DNA from: Rickettsiales bacterium
Lineage (GTDB): Bacteria; Pseudomonadota; Alphaproteobacteria; Rickettsiales; UBA6187
Assembly: GCA_028223895.1 (NCBI GenBank)
Contig: JAOIVE010000001.1
Location: 1,270 to 65,269 of the forward strand
Reading direction: 5' to 3'
DNA: 64,000 nt
The notes below the pieces were generated by a model, which did not search any database, was not told the origin of the DNA, and worked only from the letters and a program-made list of their open reading frames with translations. Positions 19,371 through 55,426 of this stretch are shown one piece after another (position 1 is the first letter of the stretch; each line of letters starts with the position of its first letter). The translations under genes and the position numbers were made by a program.

Positions 19371-20156
19371 ATGTCAAATATTATTGAAAAGCCTAATGTA
19401 AAAGAGCTATCAGGTAATAGTGAAAGTTACAGAAATTTTCTAAAAAGCATTCCATTATTTAGCGATTTTCCTGAAGACGCAATTAGTCAGGTTTTGGGTA
19501 ATGCTCGTATAAAGAAATATAATAAGAACGAGATATTATTCATGACCGGCGATAAGGCTGAAAATTTCCGCATTATTATCACCGGGTGGGCAAAATTATA
19601 TCGCCAGACGCGTGATGGGCATGAAGCTATTGTTACCGTTCTTACAAATGGCGAAATGTTTGGGAATACAGCCATTATAAAAAACGGTACTCATGCCTAT
19701 ACGGCAGAAACAGTTGCGGATTCTATCATGTTTCTTATCCCTGCTTCATTTATGTTGCATATGTCTGAGAGCTATCAGCATTTTGATCATTTTCTGGCAA
19801 AATTTCTTGAAGGAGGTTTGGGGCAGTCAACTCAACTTAGTATGAATATAGAACATCTTTCTCAGATGACTTCTGCACAACGGGTTGGGTGTTTTCTTTT
19901 AAGGCTTTGTTTGGGGCAGAAAGAAGGAAGTATTTCGTTGCAACTTCCTTACGAAAAAGGCCTTGTTGCAGGGCGGCTTGGTATGACAGCGGAGACATTT
20001 TCACGCTCTTTAAGCCATTTAATAACCTATGGAGTTGAAACCGACCATTCTATTGTAACGATTCACAATATTATGCAGCTTCGCAGGTATATCTGTGAGC
20101 ATTGTTCCGCAACAACACGAGAATGCCACTTAGGTGAAGATATGGATGAATATTAA
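19371..20156 (+). CDS. Crp/Fnr-family regulator (FixK/Dnr-like) with C-terminal CxxC-x6-C, copy 1
   Basis: cNMP-binding fold (GEMFG), HTH LGMTAETFSRSL, tail CEHCSATTREC; GGAG RBS before MSN. Confidence 0.92.
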   Translation: MSNIIEKPNVKELSGNSESYRNFLKSIPLFSDFPEDAISQVLGNARIKKYNKNEILFMTGDKAENFRIIITGWAKLYRQTRDGHEAIVTVLTNGEMFGNTAIIKNGTHAYTAETVADSIMFLIPASFMLHMSESYQHFDHFLAKFLEGGLGQSTQLSMNIEHLSQMTSAQRVGCFLLRLCLGQKEGSISLQLPYEKGLVAGRLGMTAETFSRSLSHLITYGVETDHSIVTIHNIMQLRRYICEHCSATTRECHLGEDMDEY

Positions 20157-20533
20157 AAACCGAACCTGCTTTTTAACCAATCCATATCAAGTTTTTCCGG
20201 GTGTTCTATATATTTATCCGGATGTTCCAACACATTTTTCACGTAGCTTAAATTAACCCTCCAGGCTTTTTTTACATCTTCAGGAGTGCCGTTATGCACG
20301 AGCTTTTTATCTTTAAATTTAAGTGAGAATGCTCCTTTTGGCTCATCATCGTAAATAGTAAGGTCAATAGGCTTGTCGCCGACAACAGCGTTGGTTGCCG
20401 ATAAAATTTGTTTGTATGGAAATTCGTCCTTATGTTTATCAATAGCCTTATTGCAGATTTCCAGATATTGATTGAATAATTCGTCTATATCACCATTATC
20501 ATCGGCTTTTTCGATTTTAATGCGCTTTTCCAT
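20153..20533 (-). CDS. Hypothetical 126-aa protein (module gene, copy 1)
   Basis: Same length as, and highly similar to, 55423-55803. Confidence 0.85.
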   Translation of the reverse strand: MEKRIKIEKADDNGDIDELFNQYLEICNKAIDKHKDEFPYKQILSATNAVVGDKPIDLTIYDDEPKGAFSLKFKDKKLVHNGTPEDVKKAWRVNLSYVKNVLEHPDKYIEHPEKLDMDWLKSRFGF

Positions 20534-20544
20534 TTTTATTTTCC

Positions 20545-20997
20545 TTAAATATGTATAATTTTTTCAAGATATTCCTGAATTTCTTTTGGATGAAATTCCA
20601 CTAAATCCTTATCAATCTCCAGAGCAATAACATCTTTAACTGTTTTACTTAATTCCTTACGCAAAAAGCCCAGTATTTTGGGTGGAGCGGTGATTATCAG
20701 ACGGTGGTATTCTTCTTTATCAAGTTTATCTTTTAAATATTCGGCCACCTCACGCATGAATTGCTTGCGCTCCAGGGTACGATCACTGGTGTGAGGTTCG
20801 ATAATATGCCTTGCACCGCCTGCGCTATCATAGGTTCGCCCCAACTCGCCTCGTCCGGTTGGTTCATCCGTGCGGATGGGTTTTGCGCTAAGGGTATGGT
20901 GTAAATCACCCAAATGATGTTCTGTCATCATCGTATAAAAATTTGAATGTTTACCATCCATTACAGCTATCCATGTAATACGCTTTTTCTTATTCAC
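20545..20997 (-). CDS. Host-attachment / baeRF12 (eRF1-like) family protein, copy 1
   Basis: TWIAVMDGKHS, GRTYDSAGGARH, LIITAPPKILGFLR, EIDKDL. Confidence 0.85.
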   Translation of the reverse strand: MNKKKRITWIAVMDGKHSNFYTMMTEHHLGDLHHTLSAKPIRTDEPTGRGELGRTYDSAGGARHIIEPHTSDRTLERKQFMREVAEYLKDKLDKEEYHRLIITAPPKILGFLRKELSKTVKDVIALEIDKDLVEFHPKEIQEYLEKIIHI

Positions 20998-21081
20998 AAA
21001 AGTTTCCTTTTTTAATAAAAATCCCAAAAGGCAAGTGGCAACTCAGCATTATGAATTGCCACAATTTAAATAATACCTTTG

Positions 21082-21585
21082 TTAGGCCGCTTCTTTGATA
21101 TCAATCTTGCGAGTTGGTTTTACTGCTTCTTCTTTCTTTGGGATTTCCACCCACAGCACTCCTTTCTTGAAGGTAGCCTTAGTCTTATCGGCATTAGCTG
21201 AATCAGGAAGCGCAATGCTACGTTGGCATGATTCATAGGAAAATTCACGGCAGATATAATCCTCATCTTTATCTTCTTTTGATTCTTTCTTTTCTGCTTT
21301 AATCGTCAGATAATTATCGTTAACCGTAATGTCTACTTCTTCCTGCTTAAACCCTGGTAATTGAGCTTCAATTTTTAGGCTCTTATCATTTTCAATGATA
21401 TTAATCGGAATAGAAAGAGCGCTATTTTTTTCCCATAAAGACGATGCAGGCAACTGACTCTGAAAGTCATTAAAGAAATCTTCAAACATTTGATTCATCT
21501 CGTTTCTTAATGAAGTAGCAGGCCATTCTCTTCTTGTTTTTTTGATATTACCTGGTCGGTTCCGTAATGTAAGGTTAAGTGTCAT
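21082..21585 (-). CDS. Hsp20/alpha-crystallin small heat-shock protein
   Basis: AQLPG, LTIKAEK, RSIALP, ATFKKGVLWVEIPK; ends -EAA. Confidence 0.95.
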   Translation of the reverse strand: MTLNLTLRNRPGNIKKTRREWPATSLRNEMNQMFEDFFNDFQSQLPASSLWEKNSALSIPINIIENDKSLKIEAQLPGFKQEEVDITVNDNYLTIKAEKKESKEDKDEDYICREFSYESCQRSIALPDSANADKTKATFKKGVLWVEIPKKEEAVKPTRKIDIKEAA

Positions 21586-21701
21586 AATAGTTCTCCTGTA
21601 AATGTTTATGGATTTATTTTGGCTTACCTAGCCTTATGTCGCGTTTGTGGTTTAGATTTATCACCTGCATTATAGAAAACCACGAAGTTGGCGTTACATA
21701 C

Positions 21702-21749
21702 TTGATAGACATCAATCGCCTCAAAAGATTATTGTTTGACGAGTATCAA
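21702..21749. promoter_or_regulatory. Two FNR/FixK-type boxes (21702-21715 TTGATAGACATCAA; 21736-21749 TTGACGAGTATCAA)
   Basis: Between divergent hsp20 and CBS genes; mirrored by the pair at 58441/58493. Confidence 0.85.
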
Positions 21750-21845
21750 GTATAGTTTGATTGGTATGTGGTTAATTACAGCTTCCTACATGCCATTATG
21801 GTGCGAAATTAGAAAGTCACAAAAACACATTAAGGGAGTTCCGCC

Positions 21846-22280
21846 ATGTCGAATACCAAAGTAAAAGATGTAATGACCGAGAATCCATCGTTAATTAAAC
21901 CAGAAACCTCCCTTAAAGATGCCGCTAAAAAAATGCAGGAAGTTGGCTGTGGCGTTCTACCGGTAGGCAGTAAAAGTAAGCTTTTGGGTATTATTACCGA
22001 TCGTGATATTGTTATACGCGCTATAGCCGAGGGAGCTGATATCAAAACCGAGCTAGTAGAGGAATATATGTCTGATCGGGTTTATACCTGCAATGAAAAC
22101 AACACGTTAAATGAAGCTGCTGAGATTATGGGTAAGCACAAAATAAGCCGCCTTGTGGTCGAGAATGAAGACGGCAGAATCGTAGGAATTCTTTCACTTG
22201 GCTGCATGTTGCGTAACAATGCCAGTGCCAAAGAAATTGTGGCAGTAGTTGAACAAGCCAGAGGATGTAAAGCTGCGTAG
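21846..22280 (+). CDS. CBS-pair protein (Hrp1-like), copy 1
   Basis: VKDVMT, GVLPV, GIITDRDIVIR, GILSLG; ends -KAA. Confidence 0.92.
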   Translation: MSNTKVKDVMTENPSLIKPETSLKDAAKKMQEVGCGVLPVGSKSKLLGIITDRDIVIRAIAEGADIKTELVEEYMSDRVYTCNENNTLNEAAEIMGKHKISRLVVENEDGRIVGILSLGCMLRNNASAKEIVAVVEQARGCKAA

Positions 22281-22309
22281 TATTATTATGTATTATAAAC
22301 GTTGTCAGT

Positions 22310-22870
22310 TTACTTACTTTTTTGCACGACGAGTTTAGCCACACGGACACCGAGCAACCTTGCCGTCTCCAAATCGCCTTCAGAAGGAGATTTGGAATCA
22401 GGGTCGGATTGGGCCATAGCCCCAATATAACTTCCAATACGGTTTGTGTGATCTTTAGCACCTATAGAGCTACTCGCATCAGGCAGTTGGCCAAGGCTTA
22501 TCCATATCATGCTGTGCTGCGCGGCAAAAATTACTAGTTGCATCAGACTATTTAACTTGTCACCACTTAAGCTCTGTGAATTACTGAACCCGGCGGCATA
22601 TTTATCTTTCCATTTTTGTTCATACCAGCGCGGTGAAGTAGCTTCCATAAACTCCTTAAATTTTGCACTTAGCGACCCCATATAGGTTGGCGATCCAAAA
22701 ATAATAGCATCTGCCTTATCTAAATTTGCCCAGTGTTTTTCAATGTCTGATACTTTCACCAATAAAGAGTTCACCCCCTCAACAGAAGTAGCACCGCCAT
22801 GTACAGACTTTGCCTGATGCTCCGTATGACCAAAGCCACTGTGATATAGCGTAACGATATTTTTATGCAT
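22310..22870 (-). CDS. WrbA/flavodoxin-family NAD(P)H oxidoreductase
   Basis: YHSGFGHT, IIFGSPTYMGS, SGDKL. Confidence 0.9.
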   Translation of the reverse strand: MHKNIVTLYHSGFGHTEHQAKSVHGGATSVEGVNSLLVKVSDIEKHWANLDKADAIIFGSPTYMGSLSAKFKEFMEATSPRWYEQKWKDKYAAGFSNSQSLSGDKLNSLMQLVIFAAQHSMIWISLGQLPDASSSIGAKDHTNRIGSYIGAMAQSDPDSKSPSEGDLETARLLGVRVAKLVVQKSK

Positions 22871-23039
22871 AATATTTCCTTATTAACAAACCCTTTGCTG
22901 GGATTTTATTTGAATTAAATATTTTCTGCAGTTCCGTTTTTAATGTTTCACGTTCTTTTTTCAATTCTTCACGCTCAGACTTTGTTATAGTTAGATCTAA
23001 AAACATCTCTTGGTCATTTTGTCTCGCAGAATTTTTCAT
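22863..23039 (-). CDS. Possible 58-aa small protein
   Basis: MKNSARQNDQEMFLDLTITKSEREELKKERETLK...; overlaps the flavodoxin start and lies downstream of the box at 23117. Confidence 0.35.
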   Translation of the reverse strand: MKNSARQNDQEMFLDLTITKSEREELKKERETLKTELQKIFNSNKIPAKGLLIRKYYA

Positions 23040-23116
23040 TGTTTATCCCAATACGTTGTTTTTAGAGTTGATCCTGTAGTGATGAGCGAGTTAAGCATAA
23101 GTCAAACAAGGTGGAC

Positions 23117-23130
23117 TTGACGGGTGTCAA
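23117..23130. promoter_or_regulatory. FNR/FixK-type box TTGACGGGTGTCAA
   Basis: Identical to the box at 3064; upstream of dps. Confidence 0.85.
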
Positions 23131-23190
23131 TGCGCATATTTTTAATCATGCATAGGATAAAATTCCAATTAATTTACAAGGAATAAAACC

Positions 23191-23655
23191 ATGAGCAAAA
23201 CTGTGGAAAATTTAAGCCATGTACTGGCTGACACCTATACACTTTATTTAAAAACCCAGAATTACCACTGGAATGTAACGGGGCCACAGTTTGACACATT
23301 GCATCAATTATTTGGAAGGCAACATGCTACATTGGCAACGGCTATTGATGAAATAGCAGAACGTATCCGTGCGCTTGGGGAACTTGCTCCTGCTACTTAT
23401 AAAGAGTTTGAGCAGCTTAAATCTATGAAGGAAGGTACCTCTAGTTACTCCGCAGAAGAGATGTTAGATTGCCTATATAAAGGCCATAAGAAAGTTATTG
23501 AAATACTTAAAAATGCATTAAAAACAGCGGAAAATGAAGGTGACGTATTTACTGTTGAGTTACTAACAACACGTATTGGAGCATACCAGAAAGATGCTTG
23601 GATGCTGGCAGCCACTCTTTCTAAAAAACCTGCGTCGCAAACAAAGGCGGCTTAG
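23191..23655 (+). CDS. dps: Dps-family ferritin-like protein, copy 1
   Basis: LYLKTQNYHWNVTG, DEIAERIRALG, WML; ends -KAA. Confidence 0.95.
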   Translation: MSKTVENLSHVLADTYTLYLKTQNYHWNVTGPQFDTLHQLFGRQHATLATAIDEIAERIRALGELAPATYKEFEQLKSMKEGTSSYSAEEMLDCLYKGHKKVIEILKNALKTAENEGDVFTVELLTTRIGAYQKDAWMLAATLSKKPASQTKAA

Positions 23656-23756
23656 TGATGTTTATAGCTTTTTGTTTCGTTAACACTCCAAAATAATCCT
23701 TCTTTGATAGCTTTAACAGAGAGAAATTTACTAATCACATAGATAATGAATTTGTT

Positions 23757-24203
23757 TTATATGTATGATTTATAACGCACTGTTTCCGCTTCCCTACGTT
23801 TTTTTAATCCCTTCAGCTTCTTGCCACCAGCCCAGACCCATTTCATAAATTCGGCTAGTGCAGCTTCATGCTCTTCACGGTTTACTTTCCACCGGAGGGT
23901 GGAGCGTTGGAGTGCGCCGCTGCCTAAGTTGAATGTGAATGATACTAACGCATCAAATTGACCATCAGTAAGCGGCACTTTTATTAACCTGCATACGGCT
24001 CTTTCTGCCAGCAGCACATCCTTAATCAGCAGTGCCCCACCAGCAGCTTCGCTAATTCCATTTTTAAACATTTCAGCTTCGCCTGGTAGCAACAGGTGAC
24101 CATAGCCGATTGTTGGAAGGCCAGCTGCATCCAGATAGATTTCCGGCTCGAATCCTTCGAAGCGTTTGATAAGATTCAATCCTTTTTGTGTGATATGTCT
24201 CAT
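23757..24203 (-). CDS. Phage lysozyme (GH24)
   Basis: LIKRFEG...YLDAAGLPTIGYGH, FDALVSFTFNLG, GLKKRREAE. Confidence 0.95.
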   Translation of the reverse strand: MRHITQKGLNLIKRFEGFEPEIYLDAAGLPTIGYGHLLLPGEAEMFKNGISEAAGGALLIKDVLLAERAVCRLIKVPLTDGQFDALVSFTFNLGSGALQRSTLRWKVNREEHEAALAEFMKWVWAGGKKLKGLKKRREAETVRYKSYI

Positions 24204-24283
24204 GAAAATACTCGTTTTAGTTGTTATTGAAGAATAAATTGCTATGTTTTATGCACAGCCGTAAAAAATTATGAGAATTAGCC

Positions 24284-25696: not shown

Positions 25697-25707
25697 AGCC
25701 AAATAAT

Positions 25708-25740
25708 ATCGGGTGTCTCGTTTTTGTCGAGACACCCGAT
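25708..25740. terminator. Perfect 13-bp hairpin between convergent genes
   Basis: ATCGGGTGTCTCG-TTTTTGT-CGAGACACCCGAT. Confidence 0.8.
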
Positions 25741-25757
25741 TGGGATGTTGAAGCCGC

Positions 25758-26054
25758 CTAATTCTTCTCCAGCGTAGCAATCACATTCAGTTTCTTGCTG
25801 CCATATTCAAATGTTCCCCACCATTGCTCTTGCCCTGAAATTTTGCGGCGTTCAATCATTAGTGTGAAGCGGTTCACACCGACTATCTTTGCCGAGGCAA
25901 AATCTTCTAATTCAAACCATGATTTGCGTGCAGGTGTGGTTGCCATCTTCTTGACTGTGTTGGCATAAATATCCAGCAGATTTTCGATTTCATTATCGGT
26001 GCATCTGTCGTTCTGGATGTCTTCAATCATGGCTTTATAAAATAATTTGCTCAT
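25758..26054 (-). CDS. Hypothetical phage protein
   Basis: AAAGGGGG RBS before MSKLFYKAMIED. Confidence 0.7.
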   Translation of the reverse strand: MSKLFYKAMIEDIQNDRCTDNEIENLLDIYANTVKKMATTPARKSWFELEDFASAKIVGVNRFTLMIERRKISGQEQWWGTFEYGSKKLNVIATLEKN

Positions 26055-26569: not shown

Positions 26570-26570
26570 T

Positions 26571-26819: not shown

Positions 26820-26821
26820 GA

Positions 26822-34082: not shown

Positions 34083-34532
34083 ATGAGTGATAAACTGAAA
34101 CACCTGCAAATACAGACGTTAGACCGCCATATCGCGGAAATACGCGTGTGTGACCGTCCAAGTGACGGCTGGATCGCGGCTATCCGTAAATCTTTAGGCA
34201 TGAGCGTGCGCCAGCTGGCAGAACGTATCGGCATCACCCAGCAATCCACCGCAAGGCTGGAAACCAACGAGACTGACGATTCCATCACCCTGAAATCACT
34301 TCGCAAAGCTGCCGAGGCACTCGATTGCCGCGTGGTTTATGCATTAATTCCCAATGAAGGCAGCTTGGAAGTCACCATCAGGAAACAGGCGATAAAAAAA
34401 GCCAGCGAGCTTGTCAAAGACGTTGACCACACCATGCAACTTGAGGCGCAGGGCGTAGGTAATGTCGATGCCAAAATCAAAGAGCTGGCTGAAGATTTAG
34501 CAAAAAATCCTAACTCAAAATTATGGGACTAG
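34083..34532 (+). CDS. Mobile mystery protein A (XRE HTH)
   Basis: PSDGWIAAIRKSLGMS..QLA, ITLKSLRKAAEALDC, HTMQLEAQ. Confidence 0.9.
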   Translation: MSDKLKHLQIQTLDRHIAEIRVCDRPSDGWIAAIRKSLGMSVRQLAERIGITQQSTARLETNETDDSITLKSLRKAAEALDCRVVYALIPNEGSLEVTIRKQAIKKASELVKDVDHTMQLEAQGVGNVDAKIKELAEDLAKNPNSKLWD

Positions 34533-34533
34533 G

Positions 34534-35127
34534 GTGGTGCAATATCACTACATAGAGGGTCAAACCCCGCTGGATGAAGACGAAAAGCGCGATCTGATTC
34601 CCAGCATTGTAAGCCGTGAAGATCTTGATGCTTTCGAGCAGGAAAACATCCTTGAGGCTCGCAAATGGGTCATGCAAAAATCCGTTCTCTCCAAGCAGGA
34701 CATCTTCACTGAAAAATTTATCCTGAACCTGCACAAACGCATGTACGGCCATGTGTGGAAATGGGCTGGCACATACCGCAAAACCAACAAAAATATCGGT
34801 GTGGAAGCTTACCTGATTCCTACCGAACTTCACCAATTGCTAGGCGATGCCAAATACTGGCTGGAGCATAAAACATACTCCATCACTGATCTGGCCATCA
34901 TATTCCACCACCGCTTAGTGAAGATTCACCTGTTCCCCAACGGTAACGGCAGGCACGCCCGTTTATGTGCCGATGTTATCGCCCTCAAATATGGTGGCGA
35001 AAAACTATCGTGGGGCGGCAATTCCGATCTCACCAAACCCGATGAAATCCGCAAACGCTACATCGCCGCGCTGCGCGAGGCGGATGCTGGTGATTACGAG
35101 CCGTTGTTAGCGTTTGCTAAGTCATAG
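34534..35127 (+). CDS. Mobile mystery protein B (Fic domain)
   Basis: GQTPLD, VWKWAGTYR, IHLFPNGNGRHAR. Confidence 0.92.
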   Translation: MVQYHYIEGQTPLDEDEKRDLIPSIVSREDLDAFEQENILEARKWVMQKSVLSKQDIFTEKFILNLHKRMYGHVWKWAGTYRKTNKNIGVEAYLIPTELHQLLGDAKYWLEHKTYSITDLAIIFHHRLVKIHLFPNGNGRHARLCADVIALKYGGEKLSWGGNSDLTKPDEIRKRYIAALREADAGDYEPLLAFAKS

Positions 35128-35129
35128 AT

Positions 35130-35738
35130 TTACAAAATATTTAGCAGTCTTTGAGTTATTTCGGACATTGCCATAAATAATACGGTGCAGAATACGATAC
35201 CTACCACAACACCTATAATCGCTAGAGCACCATCTTTTTCTAGCATTCCAAGTCCTATCAGAAAAATAGCCAATGCAGGAACAAAGTTAGTGAATGGAAA
35301 CGGTATTAATATCACTAAACAAAACACAACAATAACCCAACCCATCAACTTTAATGCGGTAGATGAACTTAAAATAACAAGGCGTGGTTTGATATAGGGT
35401 TCTATTTTTTCCAGATAAGGGCTTACAACACCTAAAGCCTTAAGGAGTGTTGCCTTTTTTATTTCTTTTTTAGCAATGAATTTAGGCAGCTTTGGTTTGT
35501 CTATGCCAAGTGCCATCTGAAATGAAAAAATAATCATCAGTAATCCGGTAAGAGCGGAAATGCCAAGCACTCCCGACACTGGTATAGCGTTAGGCAATGT
35601 AAGCAGAACGAGTAAAATACCGTATGTACGTGTACCAAGTTGCTCGATAAGAGCACTAAACGACACCTTATCTCCTTCCAGCGCATTAATTGCATCATCC
35701 AACACTTTAGATAATCTGCGTGGAGGATTATTTTGCAC
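35130..35738 (-). CDS. ExoD-family membrane protein
   Basis: LLTLPNAIP, IPFPFTNFVPA, LEKDG. Confidence 0.85.
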   Translation of the reverse strand: MQNNPPRRLSKVLDDAINALEGDKVSFSALIEQLGTRTYGILLVLLTLPNAIPVSGVLGISALTGLLMIIFSFQMALGIDKPKLPKFIAKKEIKKATLLKALGVVSPYLEKIEPYIKPRLVILSSSTALKLMGWVIVVFCLVILIPFPFTNFVPALAIFLIGLGMLEKDGALAIIGVVVGIVFCTVLFMAMSEITQRLLNIL

Positions 35739-36438
35739 GTCTTTTCCTAACTATCATATTCATAACCTCCACACCTAGTGAAAAGGCCATGCCAAAGTAT
35801 ATATAGCCCTTAGGCACATGGAAACCCAACCCTTCCGCAACTAAGAATACCCCAATCATCATAACAAACGATAGAGCCAACATTTTTAAGGTTGGGTGAG
35901 TGGCAATAAAATCCGCAATATAACCTGATGACGCTAACATAACACCCATTGCAATTGTCATTGCTGCAATAATTACATAAATATGCTCGGTAATACCAAC
36001 GGCAGTTATGACAGAATCAAATGAGAAAATCATATCAAGTATGACTATCTGGATGATGGTACCAATAAATCCTCCACGAAATTTTTCGTACGCCGTTTTT
36101 CTATCGCCGGTCATTTCATCATGGATACTGTTTGTTGCTTTATGTAACAAAAACAACCCGCCGCCGAGCATCATAAAATCTTTTCCGGAAAATTCAAAAT
36201 CAAACAATTGAATCCATGGTTCTTTCAAAGAAATAATCCATACAATACCAAACAGCATAGCTATTCTGAATAAAAGTGCGAGGATAAGACCAATTACTCT
36301 TGCTCTTTCTTGCTGCTGCTTCGGCAAATGACCGACTACCAGAGCAATAAATACAACGTTATCAATCCCCAGCACAATTTCCAGTGCTGTTAGAGAAAGA
36401 AAGCTTGCCCAAAGGTGGTAATCAGTTAGTAATTCCAT
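35728..36438 (-). CDS. TerC-family membrane protein
   Basis: LEIVLGIDNVVFI, DMIFSFDSVITAVG, PKGYIYF. Confidence 0.92.
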   Translation of the reverse strand: MELLTDYHLWASFLSLTALEIVLGIDNVVFIALVVGHLPKQQQERARVIGLILALLFRIAMLFGIVWIISLKEPWIQLFDFEFSGKDFMMLGGGLFLLHKATNSIHDEMTGDRKTAYEKFRGGFIGTIIQIVILDMIFSFDSVITAVGITEHIYVIIAAMTIAMGVMLASSGYIADFIATHPTLKMLALSFVMMIGVFLVAEGLGFHVPKGYIYFGMAFSLGVEVMNMIVRKRRAK

Positions 36439-36590
36439 AGTTTTTCCAAGTGAGTATTTGACTTATGAACTTACTCTAACCATAGAAAAAGTCTACTCTT
36501 CCTTATGAATTTACAGGAATAATTCTATTGTAGTTGTTTGAGGCTGTGCCATAATAATCGCTATCTGTAGTTACTAAAATAAAACAACTG

Positions 36591-37355
36591 GTGCTTGTGT
36601 CTGATTTCTTTCTTTTTATATGCGTTGGTTTTGCGGCGCAACTTGTGGATGGCTCTATCGGTATGGCTTATGGCTTGATTGGCACATCAACACTTTTCTC
36701 AATGGGCATTCCGCCAGCCACGGCCAGCGCAAGCGTTCATGCCGCAGAAGTGTTCACCACCGCCGCCTCAGGAATATCACACTGGCGATTTAAGAATATT
36801 GATTTTAAATTGGTAAAACGCCTTGCTCCGGCTGGTATGCTTGGCGGGTTTATTGGGGCTTATATACTTGCCACCCACGCTAATATTTTACTTAATTTTC
36901 TTATAGCCTGCTATCTTCTTGTAATGGGAGCTATTGTCTTGCTTCGTGGTATGCGTAAATTCTCGGAGTCGAGGAAGCCTCCTCAACACATCCCATTATT
37001 AGGGTTCTTTGGTGGAATGTTTGACGCTATTGGCGGCGGCGGGTGGGGGCCTATGGTAAACAGTAATCTAATGGGGCAAGGCACTAATCCACGCATAGCT
37101 ATTGGCACTACAAGTCTTTCAGAGTTTTTTGTTACTGCTACTATTTCCTGTACATTCTTGCTTACCATTGGGCTGGAGCTATGGCCTATCATCACCGGCC
37201 TTATTATTGGCGGGGTTATCGCAGCTACCATTGCCGCTTATGCTGCCAAACGCTTACCAGTAAGGGTGCTTATGATTATTGTTGGAATTGTTATTATAAT
37301 ACTGAGCGCACGAACCATGCTAACAACTGGGCTCAATATATTTCAGTCATTATAA
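36591..37355 (+). CDS. TauE/SafE sulfite-exporter family protein
   Basis: AQLVDGSIGMAYG, ASASVH, DAIGGGGWGP. Confidence 0.88.
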   Translation: MLVSDFFLFICVGFAAQLVDGSIGMAYGLIGTSTLFSMGIPPATASASVHAAEVFTTAASGISHWRFKNIDFKLVKRLAPAGMLGGFIGAYILATHANILLNFLIACYLLVMGAIVLLRGMRKFSESRKPPQHIPLLGFFGGMFDAIGGGGWGPMVNSNLMGQGTNPRIAIGTTSLSEFFVTATISCTFLLTIGLELWPIITGLIIGGVIAATIAAYAAKRLPVRVLMIIVGIVIIILSARTMLTTGLNIFQSL

Positions 37356-48476: not shown

Positions 48477-48481
48477 TTACC

Positions 48482-50021: not shown

Positions 50022-50064
50022 GTTGGTTCCTGTATGTTGATTAATTCTGTGCATCCGCCATTGC

Positions 50065-50230
50065 AAACGAAATGGCTCAAATACCCCATTTCGTTTGGAA
50101 ACGACCTAAGTATTTGTTTTATAGAGATTCATGCGCCGCCCAAACGAAACGAAATGCAAAGTTTTGTTTTATGCCTAGCCAAAAGCCGCGCCCTCGGCGT
50201 ACCCGTAGGGGCAACCCCACGGGAGTACCT
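50065..50230 (-). other. Putative cos packaging site (cosQ/cosN/cosB-like)
   Basis: Minus strand AGGTACT...TACG-GGTACGCCGAGGG-CGCGG, then three CATTTCGTTT repeats and an IHF-like site. Confidence 0.6.
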
Positions 50231-50260
50231 TTTTGAATCGGGCTGATTAGGTGCGGTGTG

Positions 50261-50845
50261 TTAGCGGCTTTTGAGTCGCTTGAGATAGAAGGCAAGGTTG
50301 CGCGCAAACTCAATGGGGAAGCGTTCCCGTATCGTTGTTTGCATCACCTGATCGTTCTCACGCTGCCGGAACAACTGCATGATGCCAGGACCATACAACA
50401 TCTTAAGCGGCTTACGCTTAGGGCCTTTGCGAATGTAAACCGTGGTCTTGCTTGACCCGCTGCGGCGCGGAGCGATGAAAGCTTTGCTGTAGGTGCGTGT
50501 CTTGCCATAGACCTTTGCTTTGACCAACCCACGCTTGCCACCCTTTTGCTGAGTGGGTTTCTTGCTGCCCACCACAAACTCAATGAGCTGTAACGCACGG
50601 TCACGCGCCACCAACGTTGCCCACAAACGTTTGAAGGTTGCTTTCTGTGTTTCAATGCGCCGCTTTACACCAGCCTGCCTGCTGTTCATTTGTGGTGCTA
50701 TGTGTCTGGCACTTGCCACTTTGGCACTCTCTGCCACACGATTAAGCGTCCGCACAGTTGCCTGCGGTGCCACCTGTTTTTCAAGCGTGCTTAAACTCCG
50801 CCTCAATTTCTTGAGATCGTGCTGTACTGTGATGTCAAATGCCAT
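50261..50845 (-). CDS. Minor tail protein Z-like
   Basis: Basic 194 aa; RTLNRVA, AFIA, LYGPGI. Confidence 0.75.
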   Translation of the reverse strand: MAFDITVQHDLKKLRRSLSTLEKQVAPQATVRTLNRVAESAKVASARHIAPQMNSRQAGVKRRIETQKATFKRLWATLVARDRALQLIEFVVGSKKPTQQKGGKRGLVKAKVYGKTRTYSKAFIAPRRSGSSKTTVYIRKGPKRKPLKMLYGPGIMQLFRQRENDQVMQTTIRERFPIEFARNLAFYLKRLKSR

Positions 50846-51073
50846 GGTAAAAATCCTAAAATGCTAGGCTGCAAGCCGTTGTTCACGCGCTCTGAATATG
50901 ATTGACCAGTCCTGCAAAAGGTCTATTAATTGGTTCGAATTATTTCGGACGATGTCCACCACGCTTCGCCCTTCGGGCTATGCGTGGCGCAGCCACGTGT
51001 AGAACGTTAGGCCGAAGCAGTGCCCGGCGTAGTTAGAGCAAATCGGAAACGTAGACGGGCTGGAGCAAATACA

Positions 51074-51316
51074 ATGTGGTATGTTTACATAATCAGAAGC
51101 ATTAATCACCCAGAGCAAGAATACACTGGCGCTAGCCAAGACCTCAAACAACGCATCAAAGAGCATAACTCCGGCAAATCAACCCACACAGCTAAGTTTG
51201 CACCTTGGGAATTAGTGTGGTATTGTGCCTTTCCAGATAAATACAAAGCCCTTGAATTTGAGAAATATTTGAAGTCGCATTCTGGTAGGGCCTTTGCAAA
51301 AAAGAGACTCTGCTAG
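51074..51316 (+). CDS. Small GIY-YIG nuclease-family protein
   Basis: MWYVYII...YTG..DLKQRIKEHNSG...FEKYLKSHSGRAF. Confidence 0.9.
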   Translation: MWYVYIIRSINHPEQEYTGASQDLKQRIKEHNSGKSTHTAKFAPWELVWYCAFPDKYKALEFEKYLKSHSGRAFAKKRLC

Positions 51317-51389
51317 CCGTTTAATGAGTTGATATTTGCCTTGTAAATCCTATAGTTGAGGAGTTCGACTCGGGTTTGGTATAAATAAA

Positions 51390-52196
51390 ATGGTTTTTTT
51401 GCAGCATAGCATTATAAGGCACACTACTATTGAAAAAATGCTGAAATATGCTGTTCAGTTGAATGCTCTCTTTATCCCTGCAAACTCGGTACAAAGTTCA
51501 CTATCACGTTATACTCATCCTCCTGTTATCCATAATCACAATGAAGAAATTTATACATGTAGCTTAAGAGGATCATCTATAGGCATATATTACCGAAAGC
51601 GATACCTACTTTTATGTACACGTCACCAGCTAAACGGATGCGATTATAAGGACGTAGGATTAATCGATAAAGATGGAGATAGCCTACATACCTCTGCTGG
51701 AAGTTGGCATTACCCCCCTAGTGTAAATGAAACTGATTTGAATGATTTAATTGTATTTGATTTCACTGCGCCATGTAACTATAGTCCATATATGAAGGAG
51801 TGGTTTTTCTCTCTTGAATGTTTTCCACCCAATTCACCGTCAAATGGGATAATTGCTTTTATTATTTCTGGATATCCTTCTCAAGAACAAAAGTATAACT
51901 TAGGAGAAGAAGAAAAACATTTAGGATTCCGAAGAGAATCAATTACCTGTTTATTAGGATCCTACGATGATCAAGTAAAAGGAGATCCTTCTATCTTATG
52001 TCTATCGTATGATCATAATTCTGATTTTAATCCAGATGGTATGAGTGGTGGCGCTGCCTTTGTTATACAGTTAGTAAATGGCAAACCACGTGCATATCTA
52101 GCCGGTATGGTAGTTCGAGCTGGAAATGGTAAATTCTATATACTGAGAATAGGTTTTATACAGAAGTTTATTGATCAATATTTAGATCGTCTTTAG
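51390..52196 (+). CDS. Trypsin-like serine protease moron
   Basis: LLCTRHQ (His), NDLIVF (Asp), DGMSGG (Ser); AT-rich. Confidence 0.6.
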   Translation: MVFLQHSIIRHTTIEKMLKYAVQLNALFIPANSVQSSLSRYTHPPVIHNHNEEIYTCSLRGSSIGIYYRKRYLLLCTRHQLNGCDYKDVGLIDKDGDSLHTSAGSWHYPPSVNETDLNDLIVFDFTAPCNYSPYMKEWFFSLECFPPNSPSNGIIAFIISGYPSQEQKYNLGEEEKHLGFRRESITCLLGSYDDQVKGDPSILCLSYDHNSDFNPDGMSGGAAFVIQLVNGKPRAYLAGMVVRAGNGKFYILRIGFIQKFIDQYLDRL

Positions 52197-52213
52197 TTGT
52201 TCCTCGTGTAAAA

Positions 52214-52414
52214 CTAAACTCCTTTCTCCAACACCACCCGCGCCATCAACTCAATCGTATTCACCAACTCTACCTTCTGCTCTTCCGTGAGATCAAAATT
52301 ATCAATATGAGGTCGATACGGCGCGAGAGGGTCATTTTCGCCCACCTCTGCCGATGATATTAATGAAGGTACGATTTTTTGTTCATCCTGTTTAGTCTTT
52401 TTTTGTTCGAACAC
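52214..52414 (-). CDS. Hypothetical small protein
   Basis: GTG start after GGAGG; YRPHIDNFDLTEEQKVEL. Confidence 0.45.
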   Translation of the reverse strand: MFEQKKTKQDEQKIVPSLISSAEVGENDPLAPYRPHIDNFDLTEEQKVELVNTIELMARVVLEKGV

Positions 52415-52415
52415 T

Positions 52416-52646
52416 TTAACGCCCTCCCAGATTCGAATTCAGGCGTGTAACGATTTTAAGCAGCGCATACGTCCACATCTGCCATGCTTTGGTACGACCA
52501 CAGCCAAGCCGCCAGCAAATTGGCTTCCATGGAATTCGGGCGGCACGGAGCCAGACCAGCCTGCGTTCTTCCTCATCATCGAGCCAGAAAATCCAATGCA
52601 GCGTTTTTTCCATCCGGCTGATTGCGTCTGGCGTAGGTGGCCCCAT
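52416..52646 (-). pseudogene. C-terminal half of a phage DUF6362-like regulator
   Basis: PPTPDAISRMEKTLHW..WL..EERRLVWLRA..IPWKPIC; the N-terminus is replaced by phaC sequence. Confidence 0.75.
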
Positions 52647-53393
52647 GCCGCAGCGATAGCCAATAACTTACCACCCAAACAATATCCTACAGCATGTATC
52701 TTTTTGTCAGGCACGACATCCTGCGCCGCATCAATTGCTTCGAATAACCCGCGCTTGAGATAATCATTTAAACCAACATTCCGATATTCGGCGGTGGGGT
52801 TTTTCCACGAAATCATAAATACCGTATGCCCCTTGATCCACGAGATATTTCACTAGAGAATTATGGTCAGATAAATCAAGAATGTAATATTTCATAATCC
52901 ATGCCGGAACGATAAATACCGGCTCGGCATAAACATTATTAGTAATGGGTTTGTATTGAATCACCTCCAGCAACTCATTGCGGAAGATGATTTTTCCTTT
53001 TGTAATGGCAAGATTTTTTCCGACCTCGAATTGTTCTAAACCCACTGGCTTTTCATCATTTACCAAGCAAGACATATCCTCCAACAGGTTCATCCAACCG
53101 GTGACGAGGTTTATGCCCTTTTGCTCTTGCGTTGCCTTCGTCAGTAATGGATTGGTGGGCACGAAATTGGAAGGGGCGATGGCATCGATCATCTGGCGAA
53201 TGGTAAAGGATACGAGGTCAAGACTATGCGGATTCACCCCGCGCACATGGCTCGTCGTCTGCTTCCACCAATCCCGATAAAGTAGAAATGATTGCTGGTA
53301 GACATTATAGGGAAATTGGCACAAGCCCTCTGCCTTGAACCGACGATCTGTTGGGTCGGGATTCACCGGGCATGCTGGATTATCTTGTATCAT
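52647..53393 (-). pseudogene. phaC: Truncated, frameshifted PHA synthase
   Basis: DRRF, PSNFVPTNP, VPAWIMKYYILDL, +1 frameshift in C4 at 52829-52832, MISWKNP, GYCLGG, then an abrupt end. Confidence 0.9.
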
Positions 53394-53446
53394 GGTGTTT
53401 GTTGATTTCTATAACTTTTGGCATGTGGTTTATTCCGTTTCATTAA

Positions 53447-53758
53447 CTATTCTTTTCTTTTTCGTGCGATTTCCTCACTGGCTATTTTCTTATCATCCAG
53501 GGCTTTTGCAGAGTCTACACTTCTTTGGTAGTGCAAAGAAACATTATCTATGAATTCCTTTGTAGTCCCGCCTTGACAATCAGATGATAGCTTTTCAAGT
53601 AGCTCCTCAAGTAGCTCCTCAAGAGCCATATCTATGCTGACCGCCTCAATAAGCAAACCTTTTAGGCGGCTGTGCAACTCTTCGGGGTCAGCAAAATTTT
53701 CTACTGCTTGGGTATACCCCTTGATTATCGTATCAAACCGGCTGTTTTTTTTTGACAT
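53447..53758 (-). CDS. Hypothetical protein (module gene A, copy 2)
   Basis: Paralog of 18080-18397. Confidence 0.8.
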   Translation of the reverse strand: MSKKNSRFDTIIKGYTQAVENFADPEELHSRLKGLLIEAVSIDMALEELLEELLEKLSSDCQGGTTKEFIDNVSLHYQRSVDSAKALDDKKIASEEIARKRKE

Positions 53759-53816
53759 TTGAACCCCCTGCGACTGGATTATCTATAATTTTTAACAAAA
53801 AATAAAATATGCTATC

Positions 53817-53830
53817 TTGATACCTGTCAA
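53817..53830. promoter_or_regulatory. FNR/FixK-type box TTGATACCTGTCAA
   Basis: Equivalent to the box at 18458. Confidence 0.85.
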
Positions 53831-53915
53831 ATCATGAGAAAATAATGTTCTTTATATTTCAGTGCACAGGAGATATTGGGTTTCCGGTAATAACCGATTT
53901 TTAAGGATAACGATC

Positions 53916-54107
53916 ATGATATTATTTAAAAAAGAATCATCTTTCGGACATAAACAAGGACAAGGAAGCAAAAAACAGGAGCAACCCTCTAAAAGTGCCC
54001 AGTCGCACAAAAACAAGGACGCTTCCTGTGATACTAAACCTAATAAGGGCCACAAAAGCGGATCATCTTGTGGAACTTCTCCTAAAAAAGGTGACACCTG
54101 CAATTAA
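53916..54107 (+). CDS. 63-aa Lys-rich peptide ending SCGTSPKKGDTCN (copy 2)
   Basis: AAGGA RBS; paralog of 18557-18730; hairpin at about 54117-54152. Confidence 0.8.
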   Translation: MILFKKESSFGHKQGQGSKKQEQPSKSAQSHKNKDASCDTKPNKGHKSGSSCGTSPKKGDTCN

Positions 54108-54167
54108 AATGGTAAGCGCATACCTTCCTGTGTATAACAGGGAGGTGTGTGTTTAGGTCGATGAATT

Positions 54168-54323
54168 ATGGAAAGTGATCATATAATGGACGATGAGGTC
54201 GAAAATGGTAATCAGCTCCTGGTAAATATGCCTGATATTGAGAATTATATTATTGAGTATACGCCTAGAAAAAGCTCCACCATGGTTAATTTCTTCCACG
54301 CAGGCTTAACAAATGTTGAGTAG
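54168..54323 (+). CDS. Unannotated 51-aa micropeptide (MPDIE family, copy 2)
   Basis: MESDHIMDDEVENGNQLLVNMPDIENYIIEYTPRKSSTMVNF...; similar to 6936-7058. Confidence 0.65.
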   Translation: MESDHIMDDEVENGNQLLVNMPDIENYIIEYTPRKSSTMVNFFHAGLTNVE

Positions 54324-54369
54324 TATAAATTTTTGAATTTCCCTTACAACGGTTAGTGGCAAATCCTCA

Positions 54370-54528
54370 TTAATCCGTTGCCAAATTGCAGCAATATTCC
54401 TCTTTCTTGTTGAGTTTTTTTGAATTATCAATGTGTTTTTCAACTATCTTTAAGCTAGATTCCTTTGGAAGATTTTGCTGTATTTCCTTTATATCAGATT
54501 TCTCGATTATCCTATTGACAACACGCAT
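54370..54528 (-). CDS. Unannotated 52-aa peptide ending CCNLATD (copy 2)
   Basis: AAAGGTGAG RBS; MRVVNRIIEKSDIKE...KKEEYCCNLATD; divergent from Crp/Fnr copy 2. Confidence 0.75.
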   Translation of the reverse strand: MRVVNRIIEKSDIKEIQQNLPKESSLKIVEKHIDNSKKLNKKEEYCCNLATD

Positions 54529-54600
54529 TATTTTTTCTCACCTTTAAGTTGTAAAGAAGTTGCTTTGATATATGCTTATAATCAAAAACCCGGTAAAACC

Positions 54601-54614
54601 TTGATGGGTATCAA
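54601..54614. promoter_or_regulatory. FNR/FixK-type box TTGATGGGTATCAA just upstream of the regulator
   Basis: 14 bp before ATG 54629. Confidence 0.85.
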
Positions 54615-54628
54615 GTGAGACAAATAAG

Positions 54629-55426
54629 ATGGAAAAACTACTTGAAAAATCGGCATCACAAGGGGTGTTACACAAATTTATGCAAAGTAAAGAAGCTTAT
54701 AGAAGTTTTCTAAAACGAATGCCTTTATTTTGTGAGTTTTCTGAAACGTGCTTAAGTGAAGTTCTGGCCAATAGCCGCATTAAACACCATAAAAAAGGCG
54801 ACATCCTTTTCATGACTGGTGATAATGCTCAAAACTTTCGTATTATTGTCAATGGCTGGATAAAACTTTACCGAGAAACACGTGATGGGCATGAAGCAGT
54901 TGTTTCTGTTCTTACAAATAACGAGGTTTTTGGTAAAACCGCTATTTTGAGTAAAGGAACCTACGCCTATACGGCTGAAGCAATAACAGATACGGAGATG
55001 TTGATGATTCCTGCTGCGTTTATGTTAAAAATGGCCGAACATAAAGATGATTATGATCATTTTCTGGCAAAATTCCTTGAAGAGGAGCTAAATGACAGCA
55101 ATCAGCTTGGTTTGCATGCGGAGCACCTGGGGCAAATGACCTCAGCCGAAAGAGTCGGCTGCTTTCTTCTACGCTTATGTAGTATACAGAAAGAAGGAAG
55201 CATTACGTTTCAACTTCCATATGAAAAAGCTCTGGTTGCCGGGAAGCTGGGTATGACAGCAGAAACTTTTTCACGGTCGTTAAACCAATTGATCACTCGT
55301 GGGGTAGAAACAAAAAACTCCGTTGTCACCATTCATAATATAGAGCAACTGCGTACCCATATTTGTGAACACTGCTCCGCTACAACTCTTGAATGTCCAC
55401 TTGGTGCAGAAACAGAGACCATTTAA
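54629..55426 (+). CDS. Crp/Fnr-family regulator with C-terminal CxxC-x6-C, copy 2
   Basis: LGMTAETFSRSL HTH; CEHCSATTLEC. Confidence 0.92.
   Translation: MEKLLEKSASQGVLHKFMQSKEAYRSFLKRMPLFCEFSETCLSEVLANSRIKHHKKGDILFMTGDNAQNFRIIVNGWIKLYRETRDGHEAVVSVLTNNEVFGKTAILSKGTYAYTAEAITDTEMLMIPAAFMLKMAEHKDDYDHFLAKFLEEELNDSNQLGLHAEHLGQMTSAERVGCFLLRLCSIQKEGSITFQLPYEKALVAGKLGMTAETFSRSLNQLITRGVETKNSVVTIHNIEQLRTHICEHCSATTLECPLGAETETI

Follow-up and report, generated by a model that had tools for sequence, protein, structure and literature searches.

Two Crp/Fnr paralogs of a small-genome alphaproteobacterium as candidate C-terminal iron-sulfur sensors with a predicted FNR-box regulon

A January 2026 review divides the iron-sulfur FNR proteins into two kinds, with an N-terminal cluster in Gram-negative bacteria and a C-terminal cluster in Gram-positive bacteria (PMC12937710). 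In E. coli FNR the ligands are given as C20, C23, C29 and C122, all in the N-terminal half; the same source gives ExSR as the FNR-type motif and describes FixK as lacking an Fe-S motif (PMC3590769). Bacillus subtilis Fnr is reported to bind its [4Fe-4S] cluster through three C-terminal cysteines and Asp141 (PMC3520743). An earlier note on this DNA had described FixK and the C-terminal cysteines of Bacillus Fnr in a way that agrees with the two sources. In FixK2 a single redox-sensitive cysteine of the DNA-binding domain is reported to inactivate the protein (PMC12937710). The rhizobial FnrN system is described with twin, autoregulated fnrN genes and an FnrN-dependent Hsp20 gene preceded by two anaeroboxes (PMC11784457). 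HcpR2 of Desulfovibrio desulfuricans is a Crp/Fnr factor modelled with an NO-sensitive Fe-S cluster (PMC5701242).

The window, a stretch of 64,000 nucleotides, has two genes for Crp/Fnr proteins, A and B (Table 1). The two proteins share 162 of 244 aligned residues (66%, BLASTP E 2e-126) and are old duplicates of an FNR-like regulator gene. Each consists of an N-terminal cNMP-binding-like barrel (PF00027, cNMP_binding, 69 and 73 bits for A and B) and a C-terminal Crp-type HTH (PF13545, HTH_Crp_2, 37.5 and 41 bits), all above the Pfam cut-offs, and the AF2 model resembles Crp/Fnr structures. The window contains an RcGTA-like cluster and the nearest relatives of A and B are in Rickettsiales-labelled MAGs, in keeping with the alphaproteobacterial context proposed earlier. 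The genome has four paralogs of the regulator, whose pairing with the DNA boxes described below is presumptive.

Table 1. Features of the two regulator modules and of the predicted boxes; positions are those of the window.
Feature	Position	Strand	Remarks
Perfect box	14916..14929		Between YfdX gene (-) and 180-aa gene, then P-type ATPase (+)
Box, module A	18458..18471		55.5 nt upstream of 109-aa gene 18080-18409 (-)
Membrane-like 88-aa ORF	18779..19045	-	Downstream of small ORF
Divergent small ORF	19055..19243	-	Ends ...KEQHCCNLATD; candidate second target of box A
FNR-type box TTGACAGGTATCAA	19344..19357		Followed by AGGAG and, 13 nt after the box, ATG of A
Paralog A, Crp/Fnr, 261 aa	19371..20156	+	cNMP-like barrel, HTH with ETFSR, C-terminal Cys tail
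Helix-alphaD Cys174 codon of A (GCF)	19890..19892	+	Proposed fourth ligand
Tail motif of A	20094..20126	+	C242-x2-C245-S-A-x4-C252
126-aa protein	20153..20533	-	No known family; convergent with A, 4-nt overlap
Host_attach / baeRF family 12 protein, module A	20545..21027	-	
Hsp20, module A	21082..21585	-	Boxes centred 123.5 and 157.5 nt upstream
Two boxes, module A	21702..21749		Between Hsp20 and CBS gene; 21702-21715 perfect, 21736-21749 one mismatch
CBS-pair protein	21846..22280	+	Divergent from Hsp20, two boxes in common
Box, module B	53817..53830		65.5 nt upstream of paralogous 103-aa gene 53447-53758 (-)
Divergent small ORF	54370..54528	-	Ends ...KEEYCCNLATD; candidate second target of box B
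FNR-type box TTGATGGGTATCAA	54601..54614		14 nt before ATG of B
Paralog B, Crp/Fnr, 265 aa	54629..55426	+	Architecture as in paralog A
Helix-alphaD Cys178 codon of B (GCF)	55160..55162	+	Proposed fourth ligand
Tail motif of B	55364..55396	+	C246-x2-C249-S-A-x4-C256
126-aa paralog	55423..55803	-	Convergent with B, 4-nt overlap
Host_attach / baeRF family 12 protein, module B	55815..56264	-	
Two Hsp20 genes, module B	56938..58215	-	56938-57711 and 57712-58215
Two boxes, module B	58441..58506		Between Hsp20 and CBS gene at 58833; 58441-58454 perfect, 58493-58506 one mismatch
Box	63195..63208		66.5 nt upstream of ferritin-like gene 62665-63135 (-)

By profile score, A and B belong to a large unnamed family that is closest to FtrB, rather than to Bacillus Fnr, and lies below the FtrB cut-off. 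With the FtrB models (NF006901, NF050815) the scores are 94.7 and 94.4 bits where 211 are required, and 60.8 and 58.6 bits where 300 are required; far under the curated NCBIfam cut-offs, A and B do not count as FtrB by this measure. None of 16 sampled relatives reaches these cut-offs either. The best profile and fold matches are Caulobacter FtrB and the unstudied Ruegeria pomeroyi protein SPOA0323 (PDB 3fx3, 3h3z), which share the ExxSR helix with A and B; the PDB search gives E 2.4e-66 for 3fx3, and the Foldseek value is E 1.7e-21 at 31-33% identity. These closest solved structures differ in having no Cys tail and in carrying Ala-Glu in place of the Gly-Cys of the family. FNR proper (E. coli type, FnrN, FnrL) is excluded by the missing N-terminal Cys trio and by the Fnr model (NF008365, 42 bits against a cut-off of 228). 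FixK or DNR identity is also ruled out, since a Cys cluster is present, the FixK model gives only 47 and 58 bits against a cut-off of 300, and the DNR structure 3dkw is just the third PDB match. A CxxC-x3-9-C tail occurs in 101 of the best 150 representatives of 50% clusters. Named hosts include Rickettsiales-labelled MAGs, Micavibrio, other Alphaproteobacteria, Pseudobdellovibrionaceae and a Coxiellaceae MAG, and the proteins are currently annotated merely as 'CRP-like cAMP-binding protein'.

Both FNR-type features, the E--SR helix and an enrichment of TTGAT-N4-ATCAA boxes, are present, and this box is the target predicted from the sequence. Residues E212, S215 and R216 are invariant in the homolog alignments, including one of 122 sequences. 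The window has 16 boxes with at most one mismatch against 4.7 expected (sd 1.94), a number reached in none of 100 shuffles, and 6 of the 15 perfect boxes in the genome fall inside these 64 kb. All but one of the 16 lie outside the listed ORFs, 36-285 nt from their putative targets. Box and helix are shared with E. coli FNR and rhizobial FnrN, as these are described in PMC3590769 and PMC11784457; the recognition helix and DNA motif reported for HcpR2 are unlike those of A and B, and the resemblance to that factor is one of description, as a Crp/Fnr factor of a Gram-negative bacterium (PMC5701242).

A box directly precedes each regulator gene, as had been claimed, and the distance to the ATG is 13, 14, 16 and 16 nt in A, B and two relatives, with a Shine-Dalgarno sequence in between. 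A box is found in 29 of 72 family loci, and 23 of the 31 boxes there are placed 80-140 nt upstream of the codon for the conserved F34; the other 43 loci have no box with at most one mismatch. The autorepression suggested from this arrangement stands in part. Autoregulation through the predicted box is supported by its conserved position directly before the Shine-Dalgarno sequence; the repressive sign is only presumed. Alternatively, the box before each regulator could serve to activate the divergent small ORF (...CCNLATD) together with the membrane-protein gene downstream of it, rather than to repress the regulator. Its head-to-head arrangement with the regulator is conserved in the two modules as well as in the relatives L098, L100, L101 (=L008) and L102 (=L009). 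From the box centre to the candidate start codons of the small ORF the distance is about 108-116 nt in A and about 79 nt in B, within the 36-285 nt seen at other targets. The membrane-like 88-aa ORF has matches of 53-70% local identity adjoining the regulator in four relative loci, with L101 and L008 apparently an identical stretch. However, the distance from box to regulator start is fixed (13-16 nt) whereas that to the small ORF varies, and the box has an equal position in many family loci, so the small ORF is rather unlikely to be what the box serves instead of the regulator. Autoregulation and control of the small ORF from one box can coexist.

The gene order around A and B is conserved between the two modules (Table 1). 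Twin gene copies, anaerobox autoregulation and an Hsp20 gene with two boxes are likenesses to the FnrN system as described in PMC11784457. The cytochrome bd genes have no box, and cbb3 subunits and narG were not found in the genome, which is 68% complete. The predicted regulon is without classical low-oxygen respiration genes, and this would count against an Fe-S sensor.

The cysteines of A are C174, C180, C242, C245 and C252, and those of B are C35, C41, C178, C184, C246, C249 and C256. The earlier note had claimed that both proteins lack the N-terminal cluster of FNR and carry GCFLLRLC and a tail ICEHCSATT(R/L)EC (C-x2-C-x6-C). Both motifs are confirmed in A and B. The E. coli-type N-terminal cluster is absent, since residues 1-34 of both proteins have no cysteine and C35 and C41 of B are cysteine in only 4 and 3 of 44 homologs and are missing in A. 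Across the 44 homologs no cysteine before residue 178 (B numbering) is conserved, in contrast to the FNR ligands. The earlier note would have been refuted by a Cys motif that homologs do not keep; the tail is strongly conserved. In the 44 homologs C178 is kept in 38, C246 in 38, C249 in 41 and C256 in 40. Among 122 tail-bearing sequences, whose mean column identity is 28%, C256 never varies, and C178, C246, C249 and S250 each reach at least 90% conservation. The pattern C-x2-C-[SP]-[AIV]-x4-C is kept in 32 of the first 33 matches listed (45-100% identical, plus one 176-aa fragment); the exception, P0017, terminates inside the motif.

Cysteine counts fit a four-ligand site in these sequences. 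Of the 183 proteins with a tail, 179 have the alphaD Cys, compared with 14 of the 49 that lack a tail. When it is present, 168 of 171 proteins have at least 3 tail Cys, most commonly 3. Of the 60 proteins that lack it, 36 have 0-2 tail Cys and 22 have four or more, while a count of exactly 3 occurs in only 2. The likely fourth ligand is C178 of B, the first of the two cysteines in GCFLLRLC; the second, C184, does not track with the tail. Shared descent inflates the raw co-occurrence of alphaD Cys and tail; there were just 5 independent contrasts, with 2 in the same direction, 0 opposite and 3 unchanged (median p 0.5). In a FastTree tree, gain and loss of the tail need at least 15 changes, and many forks are poorly supported.

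The proposed site resembles that of B. subtilis and B. cereus Fnr, which are described as having the Crp/Fnr fold, no N-terminal cluster, and three close cysteines after the HTH with an earlier fourth ligand, so that the sensor lies within the DNA-binding half (PMC3520743, PMC12937710). The differences are in the spacing, the fourth ligand and the host. Compared by description, Bacillus Fnr has C-x2-C-x4-C, whereas A and B have C-x2-C-x6-C and many relatives x5. The Bacillus-type tail is thus ruled out for A and B, and an x4 gap occurs in none of the 183 tails at a search range of 3-9; x5 occurs in 95, x6 in 75 and x7-9 in 13. The fourth ligand is Asp141 in Bacillus Fnr and probably Cys in A and B. 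The host of Bacillus Fnr is a Firmicute with ResDE control, unlike the host of A and B. WhiB-like proteins hold a [4Fe-4S] cluster with one distant Cys and C-x2-C-x5-C. This is the commonest tail class here, but the fold and mechanism of WhiB are unrelated and the likeness is of spacing only.

The four cysteines could instead bind a structural zinc that stiffens the DNA-binding domain, with any signal read by the N-terminal barrel or a partner protein, or with thiol oxidation setting the zinc free, as in redox-zinc switches. A Cys4 count with this compensation pattern suits any tetrahedral metal site, and the tail is predicted to be ordered, since the AF2 model (mean pLDDT 92.2) has block means of about 95 for residues 241-250 and about 87 for 251-260 of B. 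The tail is found mostly in aerobes (Micavibrio, Rickettsiales-labelled MAGs), where a constitutively folded site is plausible. However, the motif is one CxxC with two lone Cys instead of two CxxC knuckles, the x5 relatives match the WhiB-like spacing, and the only C-terminal Cys sites described as characterised in the superfamily, those of Bacillus Fnr, hold [4Fe-4S]; zinc is unlikely. A metal-free, reversible disulfide/thiol switch, comparable to the oxidation of FixK2 Cys183 and suggested by the CxxC pair as a classical dithiol motif, is quite improbable: two Cys would suffice where four are conserved, the proteins with at least 4 tail Cys and no alphaD Cys would be left unexplained, and, on what we take to be the FixK2 numbering of DNA contacts, Cys183 lies near residue 199 of B by a hand count from ETFSR, at none of these Cys.

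A metal or Fe-S site of some kind is probable for the four conserved Cys. The preferred reading, for which the evidence is about evenly balanced, is that A and B are C-terminal Fe-S sensors with four Cys, analogous to Bacillus Fnr, that regulate themselves and control Hsp20, CBS, ferritin-like and release-factor-like genes through FNR boxes. The predicted order of the tail speaks for this reading as well. They would be dimeric Crp/Fnr transcription factors that read TTGAT-N4-ATCAA through the E--SR recognition helix, with the sensor placed in the DNA-binding half, away from the N-terminus. The alphaD Cys (C174 in A, C178 in B) and the three tail Cys would jointly hold a redox-labile cluster, most likely [4Fe-4S]. 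The tail follows the last helix; the cluster would pin it onto alphaD and keep the domain competent for DNA binding, and the protein would switch when the cluster is lost to O2, NO or another oxidant. In its active form it would induce a local set of genes for stress and dormancy (Hsp20, CBS-pair, ferritin-like, Host_attach/baeRF12, YflT, YfdX and small Cys-rich ORFs), and binding to the box directly before its own ribosome-binding site would limit its own synthesis.

A large proteobacterial family with a C-terminal four-Cys site would add a third kind of Fe-S FNR. It would also provide a candidate oxygen/redox sensor for Rickettsiales-like symbionts, for Micavibrio and for predators resembling Bdellovibrio. 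No proteobacterial class of this kind is described in the literature searched, and within it the suggestion of a possibly new subclass holds. A broader and more tentative proposal, somewhat doubtful as a whole, is that this is a third, independently evolved Fe-S gas/redox sensor design on the Crp/Fnr scaffold, with a four-Cys cluster bridging helix alphaD and the C-terminal tail in the DNA-binding domain. Its distribution would extend widely over Proteobacteria and Bdellovibrionota that lack classical FNR and are aerobic, predatory or small in genome, and it would here be the master switch of a hypoxia/dormancy programme (Hsp20, CBS, ferritin-like and release-factor-like genes, P-type ATPase). 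Small heat-shock proteins and release-factor-like proteins are linked to the sensor through the predicted regulon, which may offer a way into the control of dormancy in a symbiont-like bacterium that is uncultured. Some family proteins without the alphaD Cys but with at least 4 tail Cys carry a fused NIT domain; together with those that combine the alphaD Cys with three tail Cys, these natural variants form a clean set on how cluster position couples to DNA binding.

The window has two Crp/Fnr paralogs, regulators A and B, for which we give about an even chance to one reading: they would be self-regulated, act through FNR boxes on a stress/dormancy module, and sense with a four-Cys, probably Fe-S, site inside their DNA-binding domain. 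Both proteins combine a cNMP-binding-like barrel with a Crp-type HTH, and they are 66% identical (162/244 identities, E 2e-126). The five cysteines of A (positions 174, 180, 242, 245 and 252) correspond to 178, 184, 246, 249 and 256 in B, which also has C35 and C41; these two are Cys in 4/44 and 3/44 homologs, respectively. Since there is no Cys in residues 1-34 of either protein, both lack an N-terminal cluster of the E. coli type, as the earlier note had claimed for the pair. The motifs that it quoted, GCFLLRLC and ICEHCSATT(R/L)EC, are in both proteins.

The top NCBIfam models for A and B are two FtrB models, with 94.7/94.4 and 60.8/58.6 bits against cut-offs of 211 and 300. The Fnr, FixK, NtcA and CRP models score below these, and 0/16 sampled relatives, tailed or tail-less, reach the FtrB cut-off. 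Because the cut-offs are missed by A, B and all 16 relatives, the profile scores place A and B in an unnamed family that adjoins FtrB and is distinct from FtrB itself. The closest solved structure is an unstudied Ruegeria pomeroyi protein (3fx3/3h3z) with a profile E of 2.4e-66; Foldseek gives it an E of 1.7e-21 at 31-33% identity, with DNR next. RedB (PMC9603854) was considered as a member of the same family and set apart by its description only, as its text mentions no Cys. A 69%-identical copy (L010:4001-5150) is on a Cellvibrionaceae-labelled contig, is split into two frames and adjoins a Host_attach gene and transposase-like fragments. This copy is probably a pseudogene and the contig is possibly misbinned.

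The direct-sensor proposal of the earlier note presupposed that homologs keep the Cys motif, and they do. In 122 tail-bearing sequences with a mean column identity of 28%, C256 never varies, and conservation is at least 90% at C178, C246, C249 and S250 (numbering of B). The post-HTH tail CxxC-x3-9-C is found in 39/46 homologs from a 90%-cluster database. The stricter pattern C-x2-C-[SP]-[AIV]-x4-C is kept in 32 of the first 33 homologs listed, which are 45-100% identical to B and include one 176-aa fragment; the sequence of the single exception, P0017, stops inside the motif. Searching 1.84 billion representatives with a profile resulted in 1,658 matches at E <= 1e-30. The best 150 of these 1,658 comprise 101 with the tail, of which 88 are single-domain and 13 are 341-700 aa long, 38 in which the HTH motif is present without the tail, and 11 that are outside the HTH pattern used, 7 of them long multi-cNMP proteins. 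The second tail Cys is separated from the third by 5 residues (95 proteins), 6 (75) or 7-9 (13). In a FastTree tree computed with the tail columns left out, A and B are inside a 33-row clade (support 98) with a six-residue gap in 32/33 rows, and tail presence or absence on this tree needs at least 15 changes.

Hosts named in the genome records include Rickettsiales MAGs, many Micavibrio, other Alphaproteobacteria, Pseudobdellovibrionaceae, a Coxiellaceae MAG and Sneathiella chinensis. In the order of the window's genome, 24/151 genomes (22/105 genera) have a match at E <= 1e-40. The closest homologs of A and B are in Rickettsiales-labelled MAGs, and an RcGTA-like cluster (GTA_TIM, Rcc01698_C, DUF2460, Phage_BR0599, GTA holin) is located between the two regulator genes; therefore, the alphaproteobacterial context holds. 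The structural genes of this cluster are at about 26100-50100, and non-phage genes (HTH, Fic, ExoD, TerC, TauE; 34083-37355) separate the baseplate genes from the tape-measure gene.

The assembly has 1.45 Mb in 93 contigs with 37% G+C and is 68% complete. All HTH_Crp_2 proteins found in this genome (4/4) have Cys-rich tails, and no classical FNR is seen in the recovered 68%. Two of these paralogs are on contigs C39 (L003:25-789) and C27 (L004:142-816). One has the tail CEVEC-x5-C-x8-C-x4-C and adjoins FTR1 iron-permease and cupredoxin genes. The other, with a CDECSLSEDC tail and ETFSH, is broken by TGA and adjoins PHB genes and three perfect boxes. A full 632-aa PhaC is on contig C27; a 209-aa ORF in the window (52764-53393, minus strand) matches the N-terminal PhaC domain only and may be a gene fragment. 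A tie between small Cys-rich ORFs and the orphan MNIO pair of the genome was rejected, as there is no convincing box or precursor near that pair.

The tail tends to occur together with the first Cys of GCFLLRLC (C174 in A, C178 in B), a residue of helix alphaD, which spans 172-183 in the AF2 model of B. This alphaD Cys is present in 179/183 tail-bearing proteins versus 14/49 tail-less ones, in which the site is mostly A, D, E, S or T. The second Cys of the motif (C184 in B) has no link to the tail (87/183 tailed versus 26/49 tail-less). The raw Fisher p of 1e-25 for the alphaD Cys and the tail is inflated by shared descent, and there are only five independent contrasts (two in the same direction, none in the opposite one, three without change), with which significance is unreachable. 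The ligand count says more than this raw association. Proteins with the alphaD Cys have at least three tail Cys in 168/171 cases, three being the commonest number. Those without it have 0-2 tail Cys in 36/60 cases, at least four in 22/60 and exactly three in only 2/60; in the proteins with at least four, the alphaD residue is mostly Trp or Arg. Since alphaD-Cys presence and tail-Cys counts complement each other, nearly every tailed protein offers at least four thiols, matching the need of a tetrahedral metal or cluster site. The tail of B is predicted to be ordered because residues 241-250 and 251-260 have average pLDDT of 95 and 87 (mean of the model 92.2).

A longer tail, CxxC-x8-C, is found in 13 proteins of 341-700 aa without the alphaD Cys, and an N-terminal NIT domain is present in 4/4 of those scanned. 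In these four (P0094, P0141, P0152, P0176) the nitrate/nitrite-sensing NIT domain is fused to a regulator whose tail has five Cys and whose alphaD residue is Trp or Arg. The proteins at loci L077, L081 and L085 were placed with the NIT fusions from similar length (517 aa) and tail only.

The [4Fe-4S] cluster of B. subtilis Fnr is held by C227, C230, C235 and D141, and B. cereus Fnr has C219-x2-C222-x4-C227 (accessible text of PMC3520743). A January 2026 review divides Fe-S FNR proteins into a Gram-negative N-terminal and a Gram-positive C-terminal type (excerpts of PMC12937710). A and B probably work like Bacillus-type Fnr and are unlike it in Cys spacing, likely fourth ligand, host and nearest profile family. 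A C-terminal Cys tail in proteobacterial members was described nowhere in the accessible main texts of the open-access papers and bioRxiv preprints searched, including family-wide studies. The interpretation as a direct sensor is upheld in part: the tail is conserved across the family and the context is alphaproteobacterial, and the Fe-S nature of the site is only probable. A zinc site formed by the same four Cys is a live rival to the Fe-S site, as is a thiol switch formed by Cys of A and B.

Recognition helix residues E212, S215 and R216 are invariant, and ExSR is the motif for FNR-type DNA binding (accessible text of PMC3590769). The window contains 16 FNR-type boxes (TTGAT-N4-ATCAA) with at most one mismatch versus 4.7 expected, a number reached by 0/100 shuffles. 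Genome-wide there are 15 perfect boxes versus 0-7 in five shuffles; 6 of the 15 are in the window and 3 are on contig C27 adjoining another paralog. All but one of the window boxes (15/16) are outside listed ORFs and 36-285 nt upstream of candidate target genes. By eye, the 4-base spacers look G+C-rich (GCGT, AGGC, GGGT, AGCG) in this 37% G+C genome, which hints at an extra sequence preference.

Candidate targets with two boxes are an Hsp20 gene with a divergent CBS gene, and a further pair of Hsp20 genes with another CBS gene. Other genes preceded by a box are a ferritin-like gene, YflT (whose box has MprF on its opposite side), YfdX, a 180-aa gene with a P-type ATPase after it, two paralogs of about 105 aa, and small lysine-rich Cys-containing ORFs. 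The boxed set of alpha-crystallin-type Hsp20, CBS-pair, P-type cation ATPase and release-factor-like genes (15551-18076, 21082-22280, 55815-58215) resembles the mycobacterial DosR dormancy regulon in its composition. In Rhizobium leguminosarum, one Hsp20 gene with two anaeroboxes is increased about 50-fold at low oxygen via FnrN, and both fnrN copies are autoregulated (accessible text of PMC11784457). This FnrN-dependent Hsp20 may be taken as a precedent for the boxed Hsp20 genes of the window. Classical respiratory targets of A and B are not evident in the window's genome: cydA has no upstream box at up to two mismatches, and FixO and narG were not found in the 68%-complete genome.

The boxes claimed 13-14 bp before each start codon are confirmed, with 13 nt from box end to ATG in A and 14 nt in B. 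AGGAG comes straight after the box in A, with ATG next. The same order, with 16 nt from box to ATG, is found in the related loci L101 (=L008) and L102 (=L009). Locus L098 has its box at 42 nt from ATG, and no box at up to one mismatch is found before the regulator in L099 and L100. In the family, 29/72 loci have a box, and 23/31 boxes are 80-140 nt upstream of the conserved F34 codon. When the upstream DNA of A, B and L101 is compared, conservation is concentrated mainly in the box; an ATTATA-like hexamer about 20 nt upstream is also kept. A simple scan found no sigma-70 promoter on the plus strand before A or B, and a look-up of sequencing runs covering 18000-22300 gave none. By eye, a TATAAT precedes box B by 18 nt. 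Box A has a 7-bp tandem repeat (TGTATCG x 5.9, 94% matches; 19275-19315) located 29 nt upstream of it, which is absent from module B.

Where a box abuts the ribosome-binding site, the transcript must start at or before the box, a placement that speaks for repression. E. coli fnr is subject to a similar autorepression. Of the autorepression proposed in the earlier note, the placement of the box right before SD and ATG is observed in A and two relatives, and we infer from it that the self-proximal box represses its own regulator gene. Alternatively, this box could activate a divergent small ORF unit or serve both purposes; each self-proximal box is faced by a conserved, divergently oriented small ORF (...KEE-x-CCN-x-ATD).

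Regulators and small ORFs of modules A and B
Feature	Position	Strand	Remarks
Regulator A	19371-20156	+	261 aa ORF
Regulator B	54629-55426	+	265 aa ORF
Lysine-rich small ORF, module A	18557-18730	+	C-terminus SCGTSPKKGDTCN; adjoins box 18458
Lysine-rich small ORF, module B	53862-54107	+	paralog, C-terminus SCGTSPKKGDTCN; adjoins box 53817
Small CC ORF, module A	19055-19243	-	ends ...KEE-x-CCN-x-ATD; head-to-head with regulator
Small CC ORF, module B	54370-54528	-	ends ...KEE-x-CCN-x-ATD; head-to-head with regulator
88-aa membrane-like ORF	18779-19045		after small CC ORF in module A, L098, L100 and L101/L008

The gene neighbourhoods of the two regulators, modules A and B, are duplicates of each other with a common order: the gene of about 105 aa, the lysine-rich small ORF, the CCNLATD ORF, the regulator, a 126-aa protein, Host_attach/baeRF12 and Hsp20. 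The 126-aa protein is convergent with the regulator in both modules and belongs to no known family; an Atlas search with it resulted in hypothetical clusters only. The pair of small CC ORF and 88-aa ORF has no Pfam family match. In L102 (=L009) the small CC ORF is present and there is no match to the 88-aa ORF. The small CC ORF is also head-to-head with the regulator in L098, L100, L101 (=L008) and L102, and its ending is always kept. The invariant CC and C-terminal Asp suggest that the product may be a modified or metal-binding peptide.
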